DNA of 5,570 nucleotides from a virus (lineage: Duplodnaviria > Heunggongvirae > Uroviricota > Caudoviricetes): IMG/VR virus record IMGVR_UViG_2703718840_000002, positions 1 to 5,570 of that record; one strand, given 5' to 3'. The notes under the pieces were generated by a model. That model worked only from the letters and a program-made list of their open reading frames with translations, made no database searches and was not told the origin of the DNA. Shown here piece by piece: positions 1 through 5,570 of the stretch (the stretch's first letter is position 1; every line of letters begins with the position of its first letter). Position numbers and translations under genes: made by a program.

Positions 1-303
1 GTCACTGACCTTGAGCATATCAGCCAGAGTATCGGCGATATCCTGCGCACACCGGTCGGCTCACGGGTGATGCGTCGTGATTACGGCTCGTTGCTGGCGT
101 CAATGATTGACCAGCCGCAGACCCCGGCGCTTGAGTTGCAGATTAAGGTCGCCTGTTACATGGCGGTGCTGAAATGGGAACCCCGCGTCACCCTGTCATC
201 CGTCACCACGGCGCGCAGTTTTGACGGGCGAATAACGGTCACGTTAACCGGTCAGCACAACGACACCGGCCAGCCACTTTCGTTAACCATCCCTGTGAGT
301 TGA
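1..303 (+). CDS. W: Baseplate wedge protein, P2 gpW / T4 gp25-like; 5' end lies outside the window
   Basis: Frame 1 is open from base 1 to TGA at 301-303. Translation (VTDLEHISQSIGDILRTPVGSRVMRRDYGSLLASMIDQPQTPALELQIKVACYMAVLKWEPRVTLSS...) matches my recollection of P2 gpW. The next gene starts 5 nt after the stop. Confidence 0.85.
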   Translation, partial: VTDLEHISQSIGDILRTPVGSRVMRRDYGSLLASMIDQPQTPALELQIKVACYMAVLKWEPRVTLSSVTTARSFDGRITVTLTGQHNDTGQPLSLTIPVS

Positions 304-307
304 AACC

Positions 308-1216
308 ATGCCGATTATCGACCTGAACCAGCTACCCGCACCGGATGTGGTTGAGGAGCTGGACTTTGAAACCATTCTTGCCGAACGCAAGGCGACACTG
401 ATTTCCCTTTACCCGGAAGACCAGCAGGAGGCGGTCGCCCGTACCCTGACGCTGGAATCTGAGCCTCTCGTCAAACTGCTGGAGGAAAATGCTTATCGTG
501 AGCTTATCTGGCGTCAGCGTGTGAATGAGGCTGCACGGGCGGTGATGCTGGCCTGTGCCGCCGGTAATGACCTTGATGTGATTGGTGCCAATTACAACAC
601 CACACGCCTGATTATCACCCCGGCAGATGATTCGACCCTCCCGCCGACACCGGCCGTGATGGAATCTGACACCGATTATCGTCTGCGTATTCAGCAGGCG
701 TTTGAAGGTTTAAGCGTCGCCGGGTCGGTGGGGGCCTATCAGTATCATGGTCGAAGTGCCGACGGGCGTGTCGCAGATATCTCTGTCACCAGTCCTTCTC
801 CGGCCTGCGTCACCATCTCTGTGCTGTCACGTGAAAATAACGGTGTGGCATCCGAAGACCTGCTGGCGGTGGTGCGCAACGCCCTTAATGGTGAGGACGT
901 CAGACCGGTGGCCGACCGTGTGACCGTGCAGTCTGCCGTCATCGTTGAATACCAGATAAATGCCACGCTTTACCTTTACCCTGGCCCCGAAAGCGAACCC
1001 ATTCGCGCTGCCGCCGTGAAAAAACTGGAAGCGTATATCACGGCACAGCACCGGCTGGGGCGCGACATCCGACTGTCTGCCATTTATGCCGCTTTGCATG
1101 TGGAAGGCGTGCAGCGTGTCGAACTGGCTGCACCGCTGGCCGACATCGTGCTCAACAATACGCAGGCGTCTTTCTGTACCGAATACAGCGTCGTGACAGG
1201 AGGCTCGGATGAGTGA
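308..1216 (+). CDS. J: Baseplate assembly protein J (P2 gpJ family)
   Basis: 302-aa ORF, the same length I recall for P2 gpJ. It sits directly after W and before I in the conserved W-J-I-H-G order. Antisense ORFs across it are shadows. Confidence 0.88.
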   Translation: MPIIDLNQLPAPDVVEELDFETILAERKATLISLYPEDQQEAVARTLTLESEPLVKLLEENAYRELIWRQRVNEAARAVMLACAAGNDLDVIGANYNTTRLIITPADDSTLPPTPAVMESDTDYRLRIQQAFEGLSVAGSVGAYQYHGRSADGRVADISVTSPSPACVTISVLSRENNGVASEDLLAVVRNALNGEDVRPVADRVTVQSAVIVEYQINATLYLYPGPESEPIRAAAVKKLEAYITAQHRLGRDIRLSAIYAALHVEGVQRVELAAPLADIVLNNTQASFCTEYSVVTGGSDE

Positions 1217-1820
1217 TTCGCGACTGCTGCCGACCGGCTCATCACCGCTTGAAGTCGCTGCCGCAAAAGCCTGTGCGGAAATTGAAAAAACGCCGGTCAG
1301 TATTCGTGAGCTGTGGAACCCGGACACCTGCCCGGCAAATCTGCTGCCGTGGCTGGCGTGGTCATTTTCGGTTGACCGCTGGGATGATAAGTGGCCGGAA
1401 GCGACAAAACGCGCTGTTATCCGCGATGCGTATTTCATTCACTGCCATAAGGGCACTATAGGCGCAATCCGGCGTGTGGTGGAGCCGCTCGGCTATCTGA
1501 TTGAGGTGAGGGAGTGGTGGCAGCTCAACGAGGAGCCGGGGACGTTCCGCATCGTTGTTGGCGTGCTTGAGCAGGGTATTACCGAGGAAATGTATCAGGA
1601 GCTGGAGCGCCTCGTTGCTGATGCAAAACCGGCAAGCCGCCATCTGACGGGACTGGCTATCAGTTTAAGTACAACCGGCAACATTTTTGCCGGTGCGGGA
1701 TGCTATCACGGTGACGCCCTGACGGTTTATCCCTACACCCCGGAGGCCATTATTGTCGGAGGGGATTATTTCCCGGCCTCGGCCATTCATTTAATTGATA
1801 ACCTGAGAGTAAACGCATGA
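1209..1820 (+). CDS. I: Baseplate protein I (P2 gpI family)
   Basis: 203-aa ORF. GGAGG at 1198-1202 lies 6 nt upstream of ATG 1209, which overlaps the J stop (ATGAGTGA). The N-terminus MSDSRLLPTGSSPLEVAAAKA... is as I recall for P2 gpI, and the stop overlaps the H start (ATGA). Confidence 0.85.
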   Translation: MSDSRLLPTGSSPLEVAAAKACAEIEKTPVSIRELWNPDTCPANLLPWLAWSFSVDRWDDKWPEATKRAVIRDAYFIHCHKGTIGAIRRVVEPLGYLIEVREWWQLNEEPGTFRIVVGVLEQGITEEMYQELERLVADAKPASRHLTGLAISLSTTGNIFAGAGCYHGDALTVYPYTPEAIIVGGDYFPASAIHLIDNLRVNA

Positions 1821-3124
1821 CAGTGAAATACTACGCCATTCTGACTAATCAGGGCGCAGCACGGCTGGCTAACGCGACGATGCTCGGCAGTAAGCTGAAT
1901 CTGACGCAAATGGCCGTTGGTGATGCGAATGGTGTCTTGCCGACACCAGACCCGGCACAGACAAAACTGATTAATCAGAAACGCATCGCGCCGCTGAATC
2001 TTCTGAGTGTTGACCCGAACAACCAGAGCCAGATTATTGCGGAGCAAATCATCCCTGAGAACGAGGGCGGATTCTGGATCCGTGAGATTGGGCTTTATGA
2101 TGATGAAGGCGTACTCATTGCGGTGGCGAACTGCCCGGAAACGTACAAACCGCAGTTGCAGGAAGGCAGTGGTCGTACCCAGACTATCCGCATGATTCTG
2201 GTTGTCACGAATACCGAAGCTATTACGCTGAAAATCGACCCGTCGGTGGTACTGGCGACCCGTAAATACGTGGATGATAAAGTCCTGGAATTAAAGCTGT
2301 ATGTGGATGACCAGATGAGAAACCACATTGCCGCACAAGATCCTCATACCCAGTATGCGCAGAAACATAATCCGACATTTACCGGAGAACCAAAAGCGCC
2401 GACGCCTGCAGCAGGAAATAACACCACGCGGATTGCGACCACTGAGTTTGTTCAGGCCGCTATTACTGCTCTGATTAACGGTGCGCCAGCCACGCTGGAC
2501 ACACTGAAAGAAATTGCCGCAGCCATTAACAATGACCCGAAATTCAGTACCACCATTAACAATGCGCTGTCAGGTAAGCAGCCACTGGATGAGACGCTGA
2601 CTCATTTGAGTGGAAAGGATGTTGCCGGTCTTCTCGCATACCTTGGTTTGGGAGAAGGCTCTGCATTACCTGTTGGTGTCCCTGTTCCGTGGCCTTCAGC
2701 CACTCCGCCAACAGGCTGGCTGAAATGCAACGGAGCAGCTTTTTCTGCTGAAGAATACCCGGAACTGGCAAAGGCTTACCCGACAAATAAATTGCCAGAT
2801 TTACGTGGTGAGTTTATTCGTGGCTGGGATGACGGGCGTGGTATTGATGCTGGACGTGCTTTATTGAGCCTTCAGGCTGGGATGCTGGAAAAACACCGCC
2901 ATATTGTTGTTGCCAATGATGGTTACGACACAAAAGATGAATGGGAACTGGCTACGATTTTCAAAAAAACATACACACAAGGACGGGGACTTGATGCCAC
3001 AAATACAGGAGGGAGTCTGATCCCATCACCGACACTTCATTCACGAGGGAGTATCGGTAATACTGGCGGGAGTGAGACCCGTCCACGAAATATTGCATTT
3101 AACTTTATCGTAAGGGCTGCATAA
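1817..3124 (+). CDS. H: Tail fiber protein H: conserved N-terminal and shaft region plus a C-terminal tail-collar-type receptor-binding tip
   Basis: 435-aa ORF. The N-terminus (MTVKYYAILTNQGAARLANATMLGSKLNLTQMAVGDANGVLPTPDPAQTKLINQKRIAPLNLL...) is the conserved P2 H / Mu S / P1 S fiber N-terminal domain. The C-terminal part (WLKCNGAAFSAEEYPELAKAYPTNKLPDLRGEFIRGWDDGRG) resembles the phage tail collar domain as in T4 gp12. Start overlaps the I stop. It is shorter than P2 gpH (about 669 aa, from memory). Confidence 0.9.
   Translation: MTVKYYAILTNQGAARLANATMLGSKLNLTQMAVGDANGVLPTPDPAQTKLINQKRIAPLNLLSVDPNNQSQIIAEQIIPENEGGFWIREIGLYDDEGVLIAVANCPETYKPQLQEGSGRTQTIRMILVVTNTEAITLKIDPSVVLATRKYVDDKVLELKLYVDDQMRNHIAAQDPHTQYAQKHNPTFTGEPKAPTPAAGNNTTRIATTEFVQAAITALINGAPATLDTLKEIAAAINNDPKFSTTINNALSGKQPLDETLTHLSGKDVAGLLAYLGLGEGSALPVGVPVPWPSATPPTGWLKCNGAAFSAEEYPELAKAYPTNKLPDLRGEFIRGWDDGRGIDAGRALLSLQAGMLEKHRHIVVANDGYDTKDEWELATIFKKTYTQGRGLDATNTGGSLIPSPTLHSRGSIGNTGGSETRPRNIAFNFIVRAA
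2631..2656. other. Candidate crossover site for a Din-family serine invertase (hix/gix/cix/pix-like), at the constant/variable junction of H
   Basis: TTCTCGCATACC-TT-GGTTTGGGAGAA has 12-2-12 architecture. The two half-sites agree at 10 of 12 positions when one is reverse-complemented. The inner ACC/GGT and outer TTCTC/GAGAA arms resemble hixL (TTCTTGAAAACC AA GGTTTTTGATAA, recalled from memory). It encodes LAYLGLGE, about 156 codons before the H stop. Confidence 0.55.
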
Positions 3125-3732
3125 TGGATAACGCAGTATTAAATAGCGAGTTTATTGCCACGAAGGCGGGGAATATTACCGTCTATAACTACGATGGTGA
3201 AACTCGGGAATATATTTCTGCATCAACTGAATATCTTGCAGTGGGTGTCGGTATTCCAGCATATTCCTGTTTAGACGCTCCTGGTACATATAAGGCTGGT
3301 TATACAATTTGCCGTTCTGTAGATTTAAATTCATGGGAATATGTGCCAGACCATCGCGGTGAAATCGTCTATAACACCGAGACGGGAGATGCCAAAGAAA
3401 TCACAGCACCGGGTGATTACCCCGAAAATACAACCACTATCGCCCCATTAACGCCATACGATAAATGGGATGGTGAGAAATGGGTGACCGATACTGAGGC
3501 ACAGCATAGCGCCGCAGTAGACGCGGCAGAAGCACAGCGTCAGTCACTGATTGATACTGCAATGGCTTCCATTAGTCTGATTCAGCTGAAATTACAGGCC
3601 GGACGGAATCTGACGCAGTCAGAAACCAGCCGACTTAACACGGTGTTGGATTACATTGACGCGGTGACGGCAACAGATACCAGCACCGCGCCGGATGTTA
3701 TCTGGCCTGAACTGCCGGAGACTGCGCAATAA
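3124..3732 (+). CDS. G: Tail fiber assembly protein / chaperone (P2 gpG, lambda Tfa, Mu U family)
   Basis: 202-aa ORF whose ATG overlaps the H stop (TAATG). The C-terminus (...RLNTVLDYIDAVTATDTSTAPDVIWPELPETAQ) carries the conserved Tfa motif (RVDTSTAPDIEWP-like). The central DHRGEIVYNTETG...WDGEKWVTDTEAQ segment also matches the family pattern as I recall it. Confidence 0.85.
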   Translation: MDNAVLNSEFIATKAGNITVYNYDGETREYISASTEYLAVGVGIPAYSCLDAPGTYKAGYTICRSVDLNSWEYVPDHRGEIVYNTETGDAKEITAPGDYPENTTTIAPLTPYDKWDGEKWVTDTEAQHSAAVDAAEAQRQSLIDTAMASISLIQLKLQAGRNLTQSETSRLNTVLDYIDAVTATDTSTAPDVIWPELPETAQ

Positions 3733-3868
3733 ACTCACCATCAATATATAAATCCCCCTGCTGTGTGTCAGCAGGGCATTCTTTCCATATTAATGATGGA
3801 TGGAATCTTCCTTCAGGATTAATTTCCGTTATCTCTTCTACTTTATTTTCTTCAATTCTTGCCCACAT
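3698..3868 (-). CDS. Small hypothetical protein (56 aa) coupled to the glycine-rich ORF; possible remnant or short form of an alternative tail-fiber chaperone (Tfa'/U'-like position)
   Basis: On the minus strand the ATG at 3868-3866 is preceded by GGTGAGGT, 5 nt upstream, and this SD overlaps the TGA of the glycine-rich ORF. Translation is MWARIEENKVEEITEINPEGRFHPSLIWKECPADTQQGDLYIDGEFIAQSPAVQAR. Its 3' end overlaps the G 3' end by 35 nt, convergently. It is far too short for a full Tfa and contains the hairpin, so it is uncertain. Confidence 0.3.
   Translation of the reverse strand: MWARIEENKVEEITEINPEGRFHPSLIWKECPADTQQGDLYIDGEFIAQSPAVQAR
3756..3776. terminator. GC-rich hairpin (8-bp stem, 5-nt loop) between the convergent G gene and the minus-strand cassette; possible bidirectional intrinsic terminator
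   Basis: CCCTGCTG (3756-3763), loop TGTGT, CAGCAGGG (3769-3776) form a perfect inverted repeat 24 nt after the G stop. It is followed by CATTCTTTCC on the + strand and by ATTTATATATT on the minus strand. Caveat: it lies inside the candidate small minus-strand ORF. Confidence 0.35.
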
Positions 3869-3875
3869 ATGAACC

Positions 3876-4316
3876 TCACCAGTAAATATAAACTGCGCCA
3901 TCTGCTCCGGCACCCGACTGACCCGTTGATGAATTAGGACATAATCCAGCTCCGCCACCTCCAGGCCCAACTGCTGATACCGCTTTTCCGTTAGCTGTAT
4001 CTCTGAATGAACCTGCTCCTCCGGGGCCACCACCAGAACCACCATTACCAGCTCCCGATGCGGCAGAAGCAATGGAACCTGGAGAACCTGGCCCAAGCGA
4101 TGTATTAATTGTTCCCCCGACACCAACTGCTCCTAACCCTCCGGAAGGCTGGCCTCCGCTATAGCCTCCGGAAGCTGACATGTAAGTCCCGAAACTGCTC
4201 GAGCCACCATTTTTACCGTTTACAGAAATACCAGACACAGGCGCACCACCGGTACTGGAAAAACTCGGTGTTATCAACAAAGAGTCAGACACACTTGACC
4301 AGACCGCCGCCAGAAC
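3876..4316 (-). CDS. Start-less glycine-rich tail-fiber tip domain on the opposite strand (putative alternative variable C-terminal region of H, H'v); likely a gene fragment
   Basis: Minus-strand frame is open from 4316 to TGA at 3878-3876, with no ATG near its 5' end (only GTG at 4292). Translation is rich in poly-Gly/Ser motifs (...GGYSGGQPSGGLGAVGVGG...GAGNGGSGGGPGGAGS...VGPGGGGAG...GADGAVYIYW), as in fiber or adhesin receptor-binding tips. Position and orientation match the S'v half of a Mu G-type invertible segment. The 5' boundary is uncertain because it overlaps the open + frame of the T remnant at 4186-4316. Confidence 0.5.
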   Translation of the reverse strand, partial: VLAAVWSSVSDSLLITPSFSSTGGAPVSGISVNGKNGGSSSFGTYMSASGGYSGGQPSGGLGAVGVGGTINTSLGPGSPGSIASAASGAGNGGSGGGPGGAGSFRDTANGKAVSAVGPGGGGAGLCPNSSTGQSGAGADGAVYIYW

Positions 4317-4569
4317 TCAAGCCGCCACGTATGGCCGCGGTGGTTATATTCCGGCGACCAGCTCTTATGCAGGCTATCAGGCTTATCAGCCGGTCACGGT
4401 ACCGGCTGGTCGCTCTTATGTGGACCAGAGTAAAAACGAATATCACATCAGTCTGACGGGCGGTACTGCGCCGGGGACACAGCTTGACCGCCAGTTACAG
4501 GATGCACTCGAAAAATACGAGCGGGATAAACGTGCGCGCGCCCGTGCCAGCATGATGCATGACGGTTAA
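4186..4569 (+). pseudogene. T: Tail tape measure protein T, C-terminal fragment only (N-terminal bulk of the gene absent)
   Basis: Frame 1 is open from 4186 (after TAA at 4183-4185) to TAA at 4567-4569, with no start codon. It ends ...LDRQLQDALEKYERDKRARARASMMHDG immediately before the U SD and start, where P2 synteny (T-U-D) places the end of T. The true 5' junction lies somewhere between about 4186 and 4320. Confidence 0.6.
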
Positions 4570-4583
4570 GGAGGTGACGAAAA

Positions 4584-5063
4584 ATGATGCTCGCGTTAGG
4601 TATGTTTGTTTTTATGCGCCAGACGCTGCCACACCAGACCATGCAGCGTGAATCAGATTATCGCTGGCCGTCAAATTCCCGTATCGGTAAACGGGATGCC
4701 TTTCAGTTTCTCGGTGTGGGTGAGGAAAACATCACGCTTGCCGGCGTGCTTTATCCCGAACTGACCGGCGGGAAGCTGACGATGACCACGCTCAGACTGA
4801 TGGCAGAGGAAGGCCGGGCGTGGCCGTTGCTGGATGGCACCGGCATGATTTACGGCATGTATGTCATCAGCAGGGTGAGTGAAACAGGGAGTATTTTCTT
4901 TGCAGACGGCACACCCCGGAAAATTGATTTTACGCTGTCGCTCACCCGCGTTGATGAATCACTGGCCGCGCTTTATGGCGATATCGGTAAACAGGCGGAA
5001 TCGCTCATCGGTAAGGCTGGCAGTATGGCGACCAGATTCACGGGTATGACGGGGGTGGGATAA
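4584..5063 (+). CDS. U: Tail protein U (P2 gpU family)
   Basis: 159-aa ORF (MMLALGMFVFMRQTLPHQTMQRESDYRWPSNSRIGKRDAFQFLGVGEENITLAGVLYPELTGG...), the same length I recall for P2 gpU. GGAGG at 4570-4574 lies 9 nt upstream of the ATG. Its stop overlaps the D start (TAATG). Confidence 0.82.
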   Translation: MMLALGMFVFMRQTLPHQTMQRESDYRWPSNSRIGKRDAFQFLGVGEENITLAGVLYPELTGGKLTMTTLRLMAEEGRAWPLLDGTGMIYGMYVISRVSETGSIFFADGTPRKIDFTLSLTRVDESLAALYGDIGKQAESLIGKAGSMATRFTGMTGVG

Positions 5064-5570
5064 TGCTGGATGCGCTGACATTTGATGCAGGCAGTACGCT
5101 GACGCCGGATTACATGCTGATGCTCGACAGCAGGGATATTACCGGCAATATCAGCGACCGTCTGATGAGTATGACCCTGACGGATAACCGGGGCTTTGAG
5201 GCTGACCAGCTTGATATTGAACTGAACGATGCCGACGGGCAGGTCGGGCTGCCGGTTCGTGGCGCTGTCCTGACGGTGTATATCGGCTGGAAAGGTTTTG
5301 CTCTGGTATGCAAAGGGAAATTTACCGTTGATGAGGTTGAACACCGGGGCGCGCCGGATGTGGTCACCATCCGCGCCCGGAGTGCAGATTTCCGCGGGAC
5401 GCTCAATTCCCGCCGTGAAGGTTCATGGCATGACACCACGCTCGGTGCGATTGTTGAGGCGATAGCCTCCCGTAACAGGCTGGAAGCCAGAGTCGCTCCG
5501 TCACTGGCCGGAATTAAAATCCCACACATCGACCAGTCGCAGGAGTCCGACGCGAAATTCCTGACCCGTC
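5063..5570 (+). CDS. D: Tail protein D (P2 gpD family); 3' end lies outside the window
   Basis: ATG at 5063 overlaps the U stop. Frame 2 stays open to the window end (169 codons, no stop). Translation MLDALTFDAGSTLTPDYMLMLDSRDITGNISDRLMSMTLTDNRGFEADQLDIELNDADGQVGLPVRG... matches my recollection of P2 gpD. The two antisense ORFs (4973..5344, 5110..5529) are shadows. Confidence 0.85.
   Translation, partial: MLDALTFDAGSTLTPDYMLMLDSRDITGNISDRLMSMTLTDNRGFEADQLDIELNDADGQVGLPVRGAVLTVYIGWKGFALVCKGKFTVDEVEHRGAPDVVTIRARSADFRGTLNSRREGSWHDTTLGAIVEAIASRNRLEARVAPSLAGIKIPHIDQSQESDAKFLTR

Follow-up and report, generated by a model that had tools for sequence, protein, structure and literature searches.

How does a P2-type tail gene cluster come to have the 3′ end of its tape measure gene T only a few hundred bases past G? 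This is what we find in the window analyzed here, a stretch of 5,570 bp that is the whole of contig LOOF01000044.1 (assembly GCA_001576305.1; 100% identical to the locus that we list as L005). A reading of the DNA letters by themselves, hereafter the sequence-only reading, had already called the arrangement an internal deletion. The comparisons reported below indicate that a single loss of 5,307 bp from a P2-like Escherichia coli prophage very probably accounts for it, by a recent deletion at a short microhomology, and that the result is a decaying prophage rather than a domesticated module.

RESULTS

Gene order and identity of the element

Homologs of W, J, I, H, G, U, and D, recognized from open reading frames and Pfam matches, keep the order and orientation of P2 in the window (Table 1), and megablast searches give it 94 to 97% DNA identity both with P2-type phages and with hundreds of E. 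coli prophages. Scanned against Rfam, the window had zero matches. By gene content and similarity, the element is classed as a P2-like (Peduoviridae) prophage of E. coli, of the defective (cryptic) kind. The intact references used for alignment were L002, from E. coli strain 2196, and L003, a Logan contig that is 99% identical. A sister scaffold, L004 (LOOG01000007.1, 164 kb), differs from the window by 4 mismatches over 5,570 positions; in it, ogr (Ogr_Delta) and then the pflB-focA-ycaO host junction are found 3′ of D.

The H protein has an identical copy in the intact prophage L003, and the U protein has one in at least nine intact prophages. A strong Shine-Dalgarno sequence, AAGGAGGT, lies upstream of U. 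The sequence-only reading had taken both U and D to be intact with Shine-Dalgarno sequences; this is correct for the full-length U, but the contig end cuts D after 169 codons.

Table 1. Features of the 5,570-bp window (coordinates are those of the window)
Feature	Coordinates	Strand	Basis or remark
W, baseplate gene, 3′ part, cut by contig end	1..303	+	GPW_gp25; L005 gene list; 94-97% nt identity to P2-type phages
J, baseplate gene, 302 aa	308..1216	+	Baseplate_J_N/M/C
I, tail gene, 203 aa	1209..1820	+	Tail_P2_I
H, tail fiber gene, 435 aa	1817..3124	+	Pfam Phage_tail_fib 1-150, Collar 287-334
Sole surviving 26-bp crossover site, inside H	2631..2656		Inverted-repeat partner of L003 12681-12706
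G, tail fiber assembly gene, 202 aa	3124..3732	+	Pfam Caudo_TAP 3.7e-32
Accessory gene of silent cassette, complete, 56 aa	3698..3868	-	GAGG Shine-Dalgarno 5 nt upstream
Terminator-like GC-rich hairpin, 8-bp stem, T-rich tail on + strand	3756..3776		Consensus match only; putative terminator
Alternative H C-terminal cassette remnant, glycine-rich tip, last 124 codons + stop	3876..4251	-	First ~90 codons deleted
Deletion junction, 5-bp microhomology GGTAC	4251..4255		Three-way alignment with L003 left and right parental sequences
T (tape measure) 3′ remnant, codons 711-815 + stop	4252..4569	+	Alignment to relatives
U, tail gene, 159 aa, intact, full length	4584..5063	+	Pfam Phage_P2_GpU 3.7e-44
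D, 5′ 169 codons of 387 (complete D, 387 aa), cut by contig end	5063..5570	+	Pfam Phage_GPD

A silent fiber cassette follows G

The end of T does not follow G directly, as the sequence-only reading had it; 519 bp lie between them (3733 to 4251). That reading had seen only a fragment of a fiber tip on the minus strand in this interval. The fragment is there, as a truncated fiber-tip cassette, but a complete 56-aa gene is present as well. Intact relatives carry in their G-FI interval a small gene and an alternative H C-terminal cassette on the minus strand, then a 197-aa recombinase gene on the plus strand, just upstream of FI. The interval 3733 to 4251 is recognizable from this organization as the remnant of a Mu-G-like, Gin-type invertible host-range (tail fiber) switch, and it is best annotated as such.

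The full alternative cassette, as preserved in L003, is an uninterrupted 214-codon frame that begins, in frame, at the right crossover site, and once inverted it would extend the constant part of H in frame (GLGEGS versus GLREGS). It matches tail fiber PHROGs (phrog_863, 3.6e-28), and its PGAP label in L002 is “glycine-rich domain-containing protein.” Pfam and NCBIfam searches with the glycine-rich cassette were empty, and its identity comes from the alignment to relatives.

The 56-aa accessory gene is a real gene. It overlaps, by its final 35 nt, the 3′ end of G, which is on the other strand. The product is 51% identical over its full length to that of a 59-aa gene of Pseudomonas phage Amjad_SA, which there comes after a gene for a 419-aa hypothetical protein, and a stretch that lies past a fiber fragment in the same hotspot of Yersinia phage vB_YpM_MLG42 matches it at 74% identity; searches of Pfam, NCBIfam, and PHROG gave no match. 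Other open reading frames near the junction, of 138, 115, and 49 aa, are deletion artifacts or over-extended calls. The frames of 115 aa (3698 to 4045) and 142 aa (3698 to 4126) are over-extensions into the glycine-rich region and not genes, and the 138-aa frame (3876 to 4292) is a chimera made by the deletion, with a GTG start borrowed from T-derived sequence. The terminator-like hairpin of Table 1 begins 24 nt after the G stop codon.

The fiber switch is locked

The recombinase of the intact relatives is a serine invertase (Resolvase plus HTH_7) that matches Mu Gin (PDB ID 3UJ3) over its full length at 6e-95 and phrog_125, “DNA invertase,” at 1.7e-100. It is absent from the window, while the homologous place is occupied in L002, L003, L009, L013, and L015 to L018. 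The single crossover site that survives, TTCTCGCATACC-TT-GGTTTGGGAGAA, lies inside H. The second site of the intact relatives, in reverse complement, reads TTTTCATAAACG-TT-GGTTTGAGAGAA and adjoins the invertase; no inverted partner of the site at 2631 to 2656 was found in the window, and the partner sits in the interval of L003 that is deleted here. H is constant up to about codon 275; past the crossover site, its C-terminal part is the variable cassette that is expressed at present.

Both orientations of the segment occur in nature, which is true of the element family and not of the locked copy in the window. L013 has the block of the H variable end and G flipped: its homology to the window breaks exactly at 2643, in the central dinucleotide of the site, and its invertase-proximal site is the predicted half-site hybrid, TTTTCATAAACG-TT-GGTTTGGGAGAA. 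The alternative C terminus and its accessory gene stand on the opposite strand, the window having a complete accessory gene and a truncated cassette and L003 having the cassette complete and in frame. Because one crossover site and the invertase are gone, the fiber of the window is irreversibly locked in the H-G orientation. Since only one site is left, with no partner in the window, it is locked even with another Din-family invertase in the cell. Invertase and inversion site were lost in the same deletion, and neither loss had been foreseen in the sequence-only reading.

The deletion junction and the missing 5,307 bp

Aligned to L002 and L003, the window falls into two collinear blocks, 1 to 4255 and 4251 to 5570, which lie 5.3 kb apart in the reference; the missing stretch is 5,307 bp (L003 12440 to 17746). 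The left parental sequence across the breakpoint reads GGTACCAACCG, and the three-way alignment with L003 shows neither filler bases nor an IS scar at 4251 to 4255. The right-hand homology begins at 4251 in 9 of the 9 intact prophages compared. With the more distant L002 as the reference, the microhomology is reduced to 2 bp from the 5 bp seen with L003; the undeleted parent would combine a left part that is 99.85% identical to L003 with a right part that is 100% identical to L009 and others. By our own calculation, the chance of a microhomology of at least 5 bp at a random junction is about 0.005. Short-homology illegitimate recombination is indicated because so long a match is expected in only about 0.5% of random junctions.

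The lost stretch comprises the first ~90 codons of the alternative fiber cassette, the right crossover site, the Gin-type invertase, the region upstream of FI, FI itself (sheath), FII (tube), E/E′ (chaperones), and codons 1 to 710 of T, or 87% of that gene. The corresponding genes of intact relatives match Resolvase/HTH_7 recombinase, sheath, tube, TAC_7, GpE, and PhageMin_Tail. Neither the window nor the corresponding locus of L004 has FI, FII, E/E′, or T codons 1 to 710, which leaves the FI-FII-E-E′-T-U-D operon incomplete at both.

The remaining 3′ end of T is 105 codons long and begins at 4252. Over these 105 residues, 102 match residues 711 to 815 of the 815-aa T of L003, and the remnant is 100% identical to the C terminus of the intact T of E. 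coli S1-CAM-02-A; Pfam and NCBIfam searches returned nothing for it, and its identity comes from alignment to relatives. It has no usable start, the sole in-frame one being a GTG at 4420 with no Shine-Dalgarno sequence. We considered whether the three amino acid differences from L003 might reflect relaxed selection and rejected this, as the same residues are found in intact T genes.

These alignments bear out much of the sequence-only reading. It had placed some 80 to 125 codons of the T 3′ end after the end of G at 3732, and it had held sheath, tube, E/E′, and most of T to be missing; the length is as estimated, and the genes are indeed absent by comparison with intact prophages that are 99 to 100% identical. 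An alignment of the kind that it proposed, here to intact P2-like prophages, located the breakpoints at 4251 to 4255. A non-canonical gene order conserved in intact relatives, which would have spoken against a deletion, was not what we found: the order there is canonical. Nor is the product of 4186 to 4569 a complete small protein, the part from 4252 onward being the C terminus of the tape measure. The search for microhomology or IS scars turned up the former, GGTAC, and none of the latter.

The ancestor very probably had a Mu-G-type invertible fiber switch in the G-FI hotspot, as in many P2 relatives. The variable end of H lay with G on one strand and, on the other, a glycine-rich H tip with the 56-aa accessory gene; a pair of inverted crossover sites of 26 bp and a serine invertase of the Gin family, encoded immediately before FI, completed the switch. 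A GGTAC pentamer within the silent alternative cassette was then joined to a second one at T codon 710/711 by illegitimate recombination of a RecA-independent type (e.g., replication slippage). The invertible segment holds one of the breakpoints, in a stretch that adjoins the invertase gene, a short core is common to both sides of the junction, and serine recombinases are able to use pseudo-sites, all of which might instead suggest that the invertase made the deletion itself, by site-specific recombination of the segment with pseudo-sites in direct orientation. We regard this as extremely unlikely. Neither breakpoint is at a crossover site, and when the flanks are scored against the 26-bp sites, the best matches are 14/26 and 13/26, with a background of 12.7 ± 1.8. 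True sites recombine at their central TT, but the two sides of this junction have GGTAC in common, and an unrelated second deletion in L004, described below, likewise has a 5-bp microhomology although it is distant from every site.

Illegitimate recombination between the pentamers also removed the region upstream of FI, where P2 has the late promoter P_F. P2 has four late operons, and U and D belong to the P_F operon. The strict P2 late-promoter motif, TGT-N12-ACA, was found neither upstream of FI in L003 nor in the window at 3600 to 4700. Presumably left without their operon promoter, and behind the terminator-like hairpin, U and D are probably poorly expressed, and read-through into them from the V operon is probably weak, given the hairpin at 3756 to 3776. 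The element by itself should be unable to make a contractile tail, although another P2-like prophage in the same genome may complement it in trans.

The junction in other assemblies

The same junction, base for base, is present in four assemblies, which stem from no fewer than two projects and two pipelines. Besides the window and L004, these are L006 (JYHP01000087.1), from E. coli MPEC4839, a phylogroup A strain from bovine mastitis, and L007, a Logan contig assembled at k=31 directly from the SRR3492230 reads. MPEC4839 is an ST10 strain (PMC4966475). We located the deletion allele only through a look-up of the exact H protein. The exact 28-nt junction is absent from GTDB representative genomes, JGI metagenomes, and IMG/VR, and none of the complete E. 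coli RefSeq genomes spans it; the deletion allele is therefore rare.

The window is a short whole contig with both ends inside phage genes, as are the ends of L006 and L007. Such ends suggest that repeats broke the assembly graph and that these genomes contain a second P2-like prophage, and a chimeric contig could in principle have joined the invertible segment wrongly to the end of T, for example via repeats of two P2-like prophages. We see next to no chance of this. The junction recurs in four assemblies, one of them a k=31 contig from raw reads; the parental sequences share only 5 bp at the join, far too short for a de Bruijn or overlap mis-join; and in L004 it lies inside the 164-kb scaffold, whose sequence from the portal gene to D is free of Ns. 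The run of Ns in L004 starts at the exact base where D of the window ends. On the misassembly that the sequence-only reading wanted excluded, these assemblies come out in favor of a real junction.

The contig ends carry some information of their own. L007 ends at 4280, 30 bases past the last junction-specific base (4250), where a k=31 graph would break if the 3′ end of T were also present in an intact context in the sample; the left side of the junction in L007 has no comparable branch. We take this pattern as a hint of a second P2-like prophage in these strains rather than of a mixed population. L006 ends at 4368, 30 bases past the last of seven single-nucleotide polymorphisms (4289 to 4338) that mark the L003-type T, which is consistent with a second P2-like prophage as well, if more weakly than the end of L007.

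Age of the deletion, and decay versus domestication

Window positions 4251 to 5570 (T′-U-D′) are identical at 1,320 of 1,320 bases to the intact prophages L009, L013, L016, L017, and L018, several of which are at the same ogr-pflB(-focA-ycaO) chromosomal site as L004. The deletion is judged to be recent because this retained segment is unchanged, with the dead T remnant as well kept as U and D, and the intactness of U and D consequently needs no selective explanation.

Relative to L002, L004 has a second deletion, of ~2.26 kb, with a 5-bp microhomology of CGAAC. It removes the N-terminal two thirds of terminase P, the scaffold gene O, and the first ~17 codons of the capsid gene N. L004 still has M, L, X, holin, endolysin, LysA/LysB/LysC, R, S, and most of N. 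The element is defective by its tail deletion and, in L004, by the deletion of terminase, scaffold, and capsid start too. The prophage L001 of an unrelated strain, E. coli ECJXMCRH7, has independently lost FI(3′)-FII-E-T-U(5′), lacks a part of S/V, and carries a frameshift in its terminase gene; prophage erosion usually takes this form.

The host might, on the other hand, be keeping baseplate, fiber, U, and D for a function, as parts or fibers for a co-resident P2-like phage or as a defense decoy, with the deletion as a streamlined, selected state. All of the retained genes are full length in L004, the deletion allele is present in several isolates, and the end positions of L007 and L006 suggest a co-resident P2-like prophage able to interact. 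Domestication or selective retention of this sort is nevertheless very unlikely in our estimation. Over 1,320 bp, not one base differs from intact prophages; this leaves no time for selection to become visible, so that intactness is expected by default, and the nonfunctional T remnant has been kept just as perfectly as U and D. The deletion takes the stretch ahead of FI from which U and D would be driven, and the second deletion kills terminase, scaffold, and capsid start, as random decay predicts. The element is not a tailocin of the R type either, sheath, tube, and most of T being the missing genes. The evidence points to a prophage in early mutational decay, not a domesticated one. The sequence-only reading had offered pairs of options here, a decaying or domesticated prophage and a recent deletion or selective retention; the second L004 deletion and the lack of sequence divergence favor the first member of each pair and weigh against the other.

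DISCUSSION

The element is closest to phage P2 and the P2-like prophages of E. coli, with 94 to 97% nucleotide identity over W-J-I-H (N-terminal part) and G and with the same Pfam families in the same order. Unlike P2, the window lacks the 5,307 bp between G and the end of T, and where P2 has Z/fun in the G-FI hotspot, the lineage of the window had an invertible fiber segment with its invertase. Invertible fiber loci have been described in P2-like prophages of enteropathogenic E. coli (EPEC) (PMC4272514), and DNA invertases are reported to be common as cargo at the G-FI (Z/fun) hotspot in P2-like phages (bioRxiv 10.1101/2024.10.15.618418). In L008, a Shedu nuclease is found at the hotspot position instead.

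The intact relatives resemble the Mu G segment with Gin, the P1 C segment with Cin, and the e14 P segment with Pin. They share with them a Gin-like serine invertase, a pair of inverted 26-bp dyad sites that recombine at their central dinucleotide, a constant fiber N terminus, and two convergent sets of a variable C terminus plus accessory gene. In contrast to these Din-family segments, the switch of the window is dead: it has no invertase, one site, and an alternative cassette without its 5′ part. The alternative accessory protein also differs from Mu U/U′, having 56 aa and no Caudo_TAP domain.

Deleted P2 remnants are classical in E. coli, and K-12 has a cryptic one, D′-ogrK, next to yegQ. 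Our element is like the K-12 remnant and L001 in that a P2-type prophage is decaying by internal deletions, but it stands at a much earlier stage, with most genes intact and identical to those of functional relatives, and its breakpoints are not the ones seen in L001. All of this stays within known kinds; the element is an ordinary defective P2-like prophage of E. coli.

A more far-reaching role can be imagined from the hints of a second prophage. The deleted prophage would persist together with an intact P2-like prophage, in bovine and other ST10-type E. coli, as a tail fiber donor remnant that supplies it, by phenotypic mixing, with an alternative set of phase-locked baseplate and fiber parts (V-W-J-I-H-G) and extra U/D. 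We consider this highly improbable; if it were true, the donor remnant would alter the host range of the helper prophage's progeny.

A recent deletion in a decaying prophage is of little importance beyond annotation, where the prophage is to be scored as defective. It does provide a clean and datable example of early prophage decay, with two deletions at 5-bp microhomologies and no decay by point mutation, and an example of a host-range switch frozen by the loss of its invertase, neither of which would surprise a phage specialist.

Inversion and small-scale mosaicism

In the intact prophage relative L013, a natural isolate, the block made up of the variable part of H and G lies in the flipped orientation (L013 214-1291 against window 2643-3720). 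Within the 26-bp site, the central TT marks the point where homology between the two breaks, and L013 carries a hybrid half-site beside its invertase. At the level of sequence comparison, the flipped block is direct comparative evidence for Gin-type inversion.

After the tail-deletion junction, the 1,320-bp right block of the window differs from the intact relative L003 at seven positions, all of them confined to 50 bp of T (window 4289-4338) and amounting to three amino-acid changes. Decay was considered as the cause of these differences and rejected, since the window's allele is shared with intact T genes; the segment is a small mosaic patch.

A putative accessory gene and a cargo gene

Coordinates of a 56-aa gene, of a 251-aa cargo gene and of a second deletion junction are listed in the table. 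The 56-aa gene and G converge and share sequence over the last 35 nt of the former, at the 3' end of G; a terminator-like hairpin (3756-3776) is located within the 56-aa gene. Searches of Pfam, NCBIfam and PHROG returned no family for its product, which is conserved over its full length, at 51% identity, in Pseudomonas phage Amjad_SA, where the homologue is placed downstream of a gene for a 419-aa hypothetical protein. The 56-aa product may be a small accessory protein of the fibre tip, or a chaperone, not described before. The 251-aa cargo gene, missing from the intact relative L002, had no match in Pfam or NCBIfam, and its PHROG family is one of unknown function.

Features of the window and of related prophages
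Feature	Location	Strand	Details
251-aa cargo gene	L003/L004 6675-7430		between S and V; phrog_10503, 1.6e-181
56-aa gene	window 3698-3868	minus	downstream of glycine-rich fibre tip
Second deletion junction	~L004 1435-1440		5-bp microhomology CGAAC

Contig ends and further deletions

The window contig (5570) and a constituent contig of the sister scaffold L004 end at the identical base within D; in L004 this shared end is followed by 299 Ns (13754-14053), and the sequence resumes 486 bp further on. The shared end is probably a collapsed repeat common to a second P2-like prophage. Only four mismatches separate the window from L004 (window 165, 234, 252 and 352), grouped near the 5' contig end in W/J; these may represent genuine differences between the strains or consensus bleed-through from a second prophage copy.

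Relative to L002, L004 (LOOG01000007.1, 1-1460) shows a second internal loss, of ~2.26 kb, in which terminase P loses its N-terminal two thirds, capsid gene N its first ~17 codons, and scaffold gene O is removed as well. Gene callers still predict a "capsid" of 357 aa here, its start being chimeric. A related prophage in E. coli ECJXMCRH7 (L001 11491-11959 and 17171-18210) is decaying independently: a truncated sheath gene is fused next to a shortened U, an S/V deletion is present, the terminase is frameshifted, and the invertase is kept.

Cargo of the G-FI hotspot

In E. coli S1-CAM-02-A (L008 3156-4382), a Shedu immune nuclease replaces the invertible segment between G and FI, which illustrates cargo turnover at this hotspot. 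The same interval of Yersinia phage vB_YpM_MLG42 (L019 2478-3138) holds a 171-aa fibre fragment and a homologue of the 56-aa gene; no invertase is annotated. Because vB_YpM_MLG42 is an isolated and presumably functional P2-like phage, frozen remnants of fibre switches occur in viable phages too.
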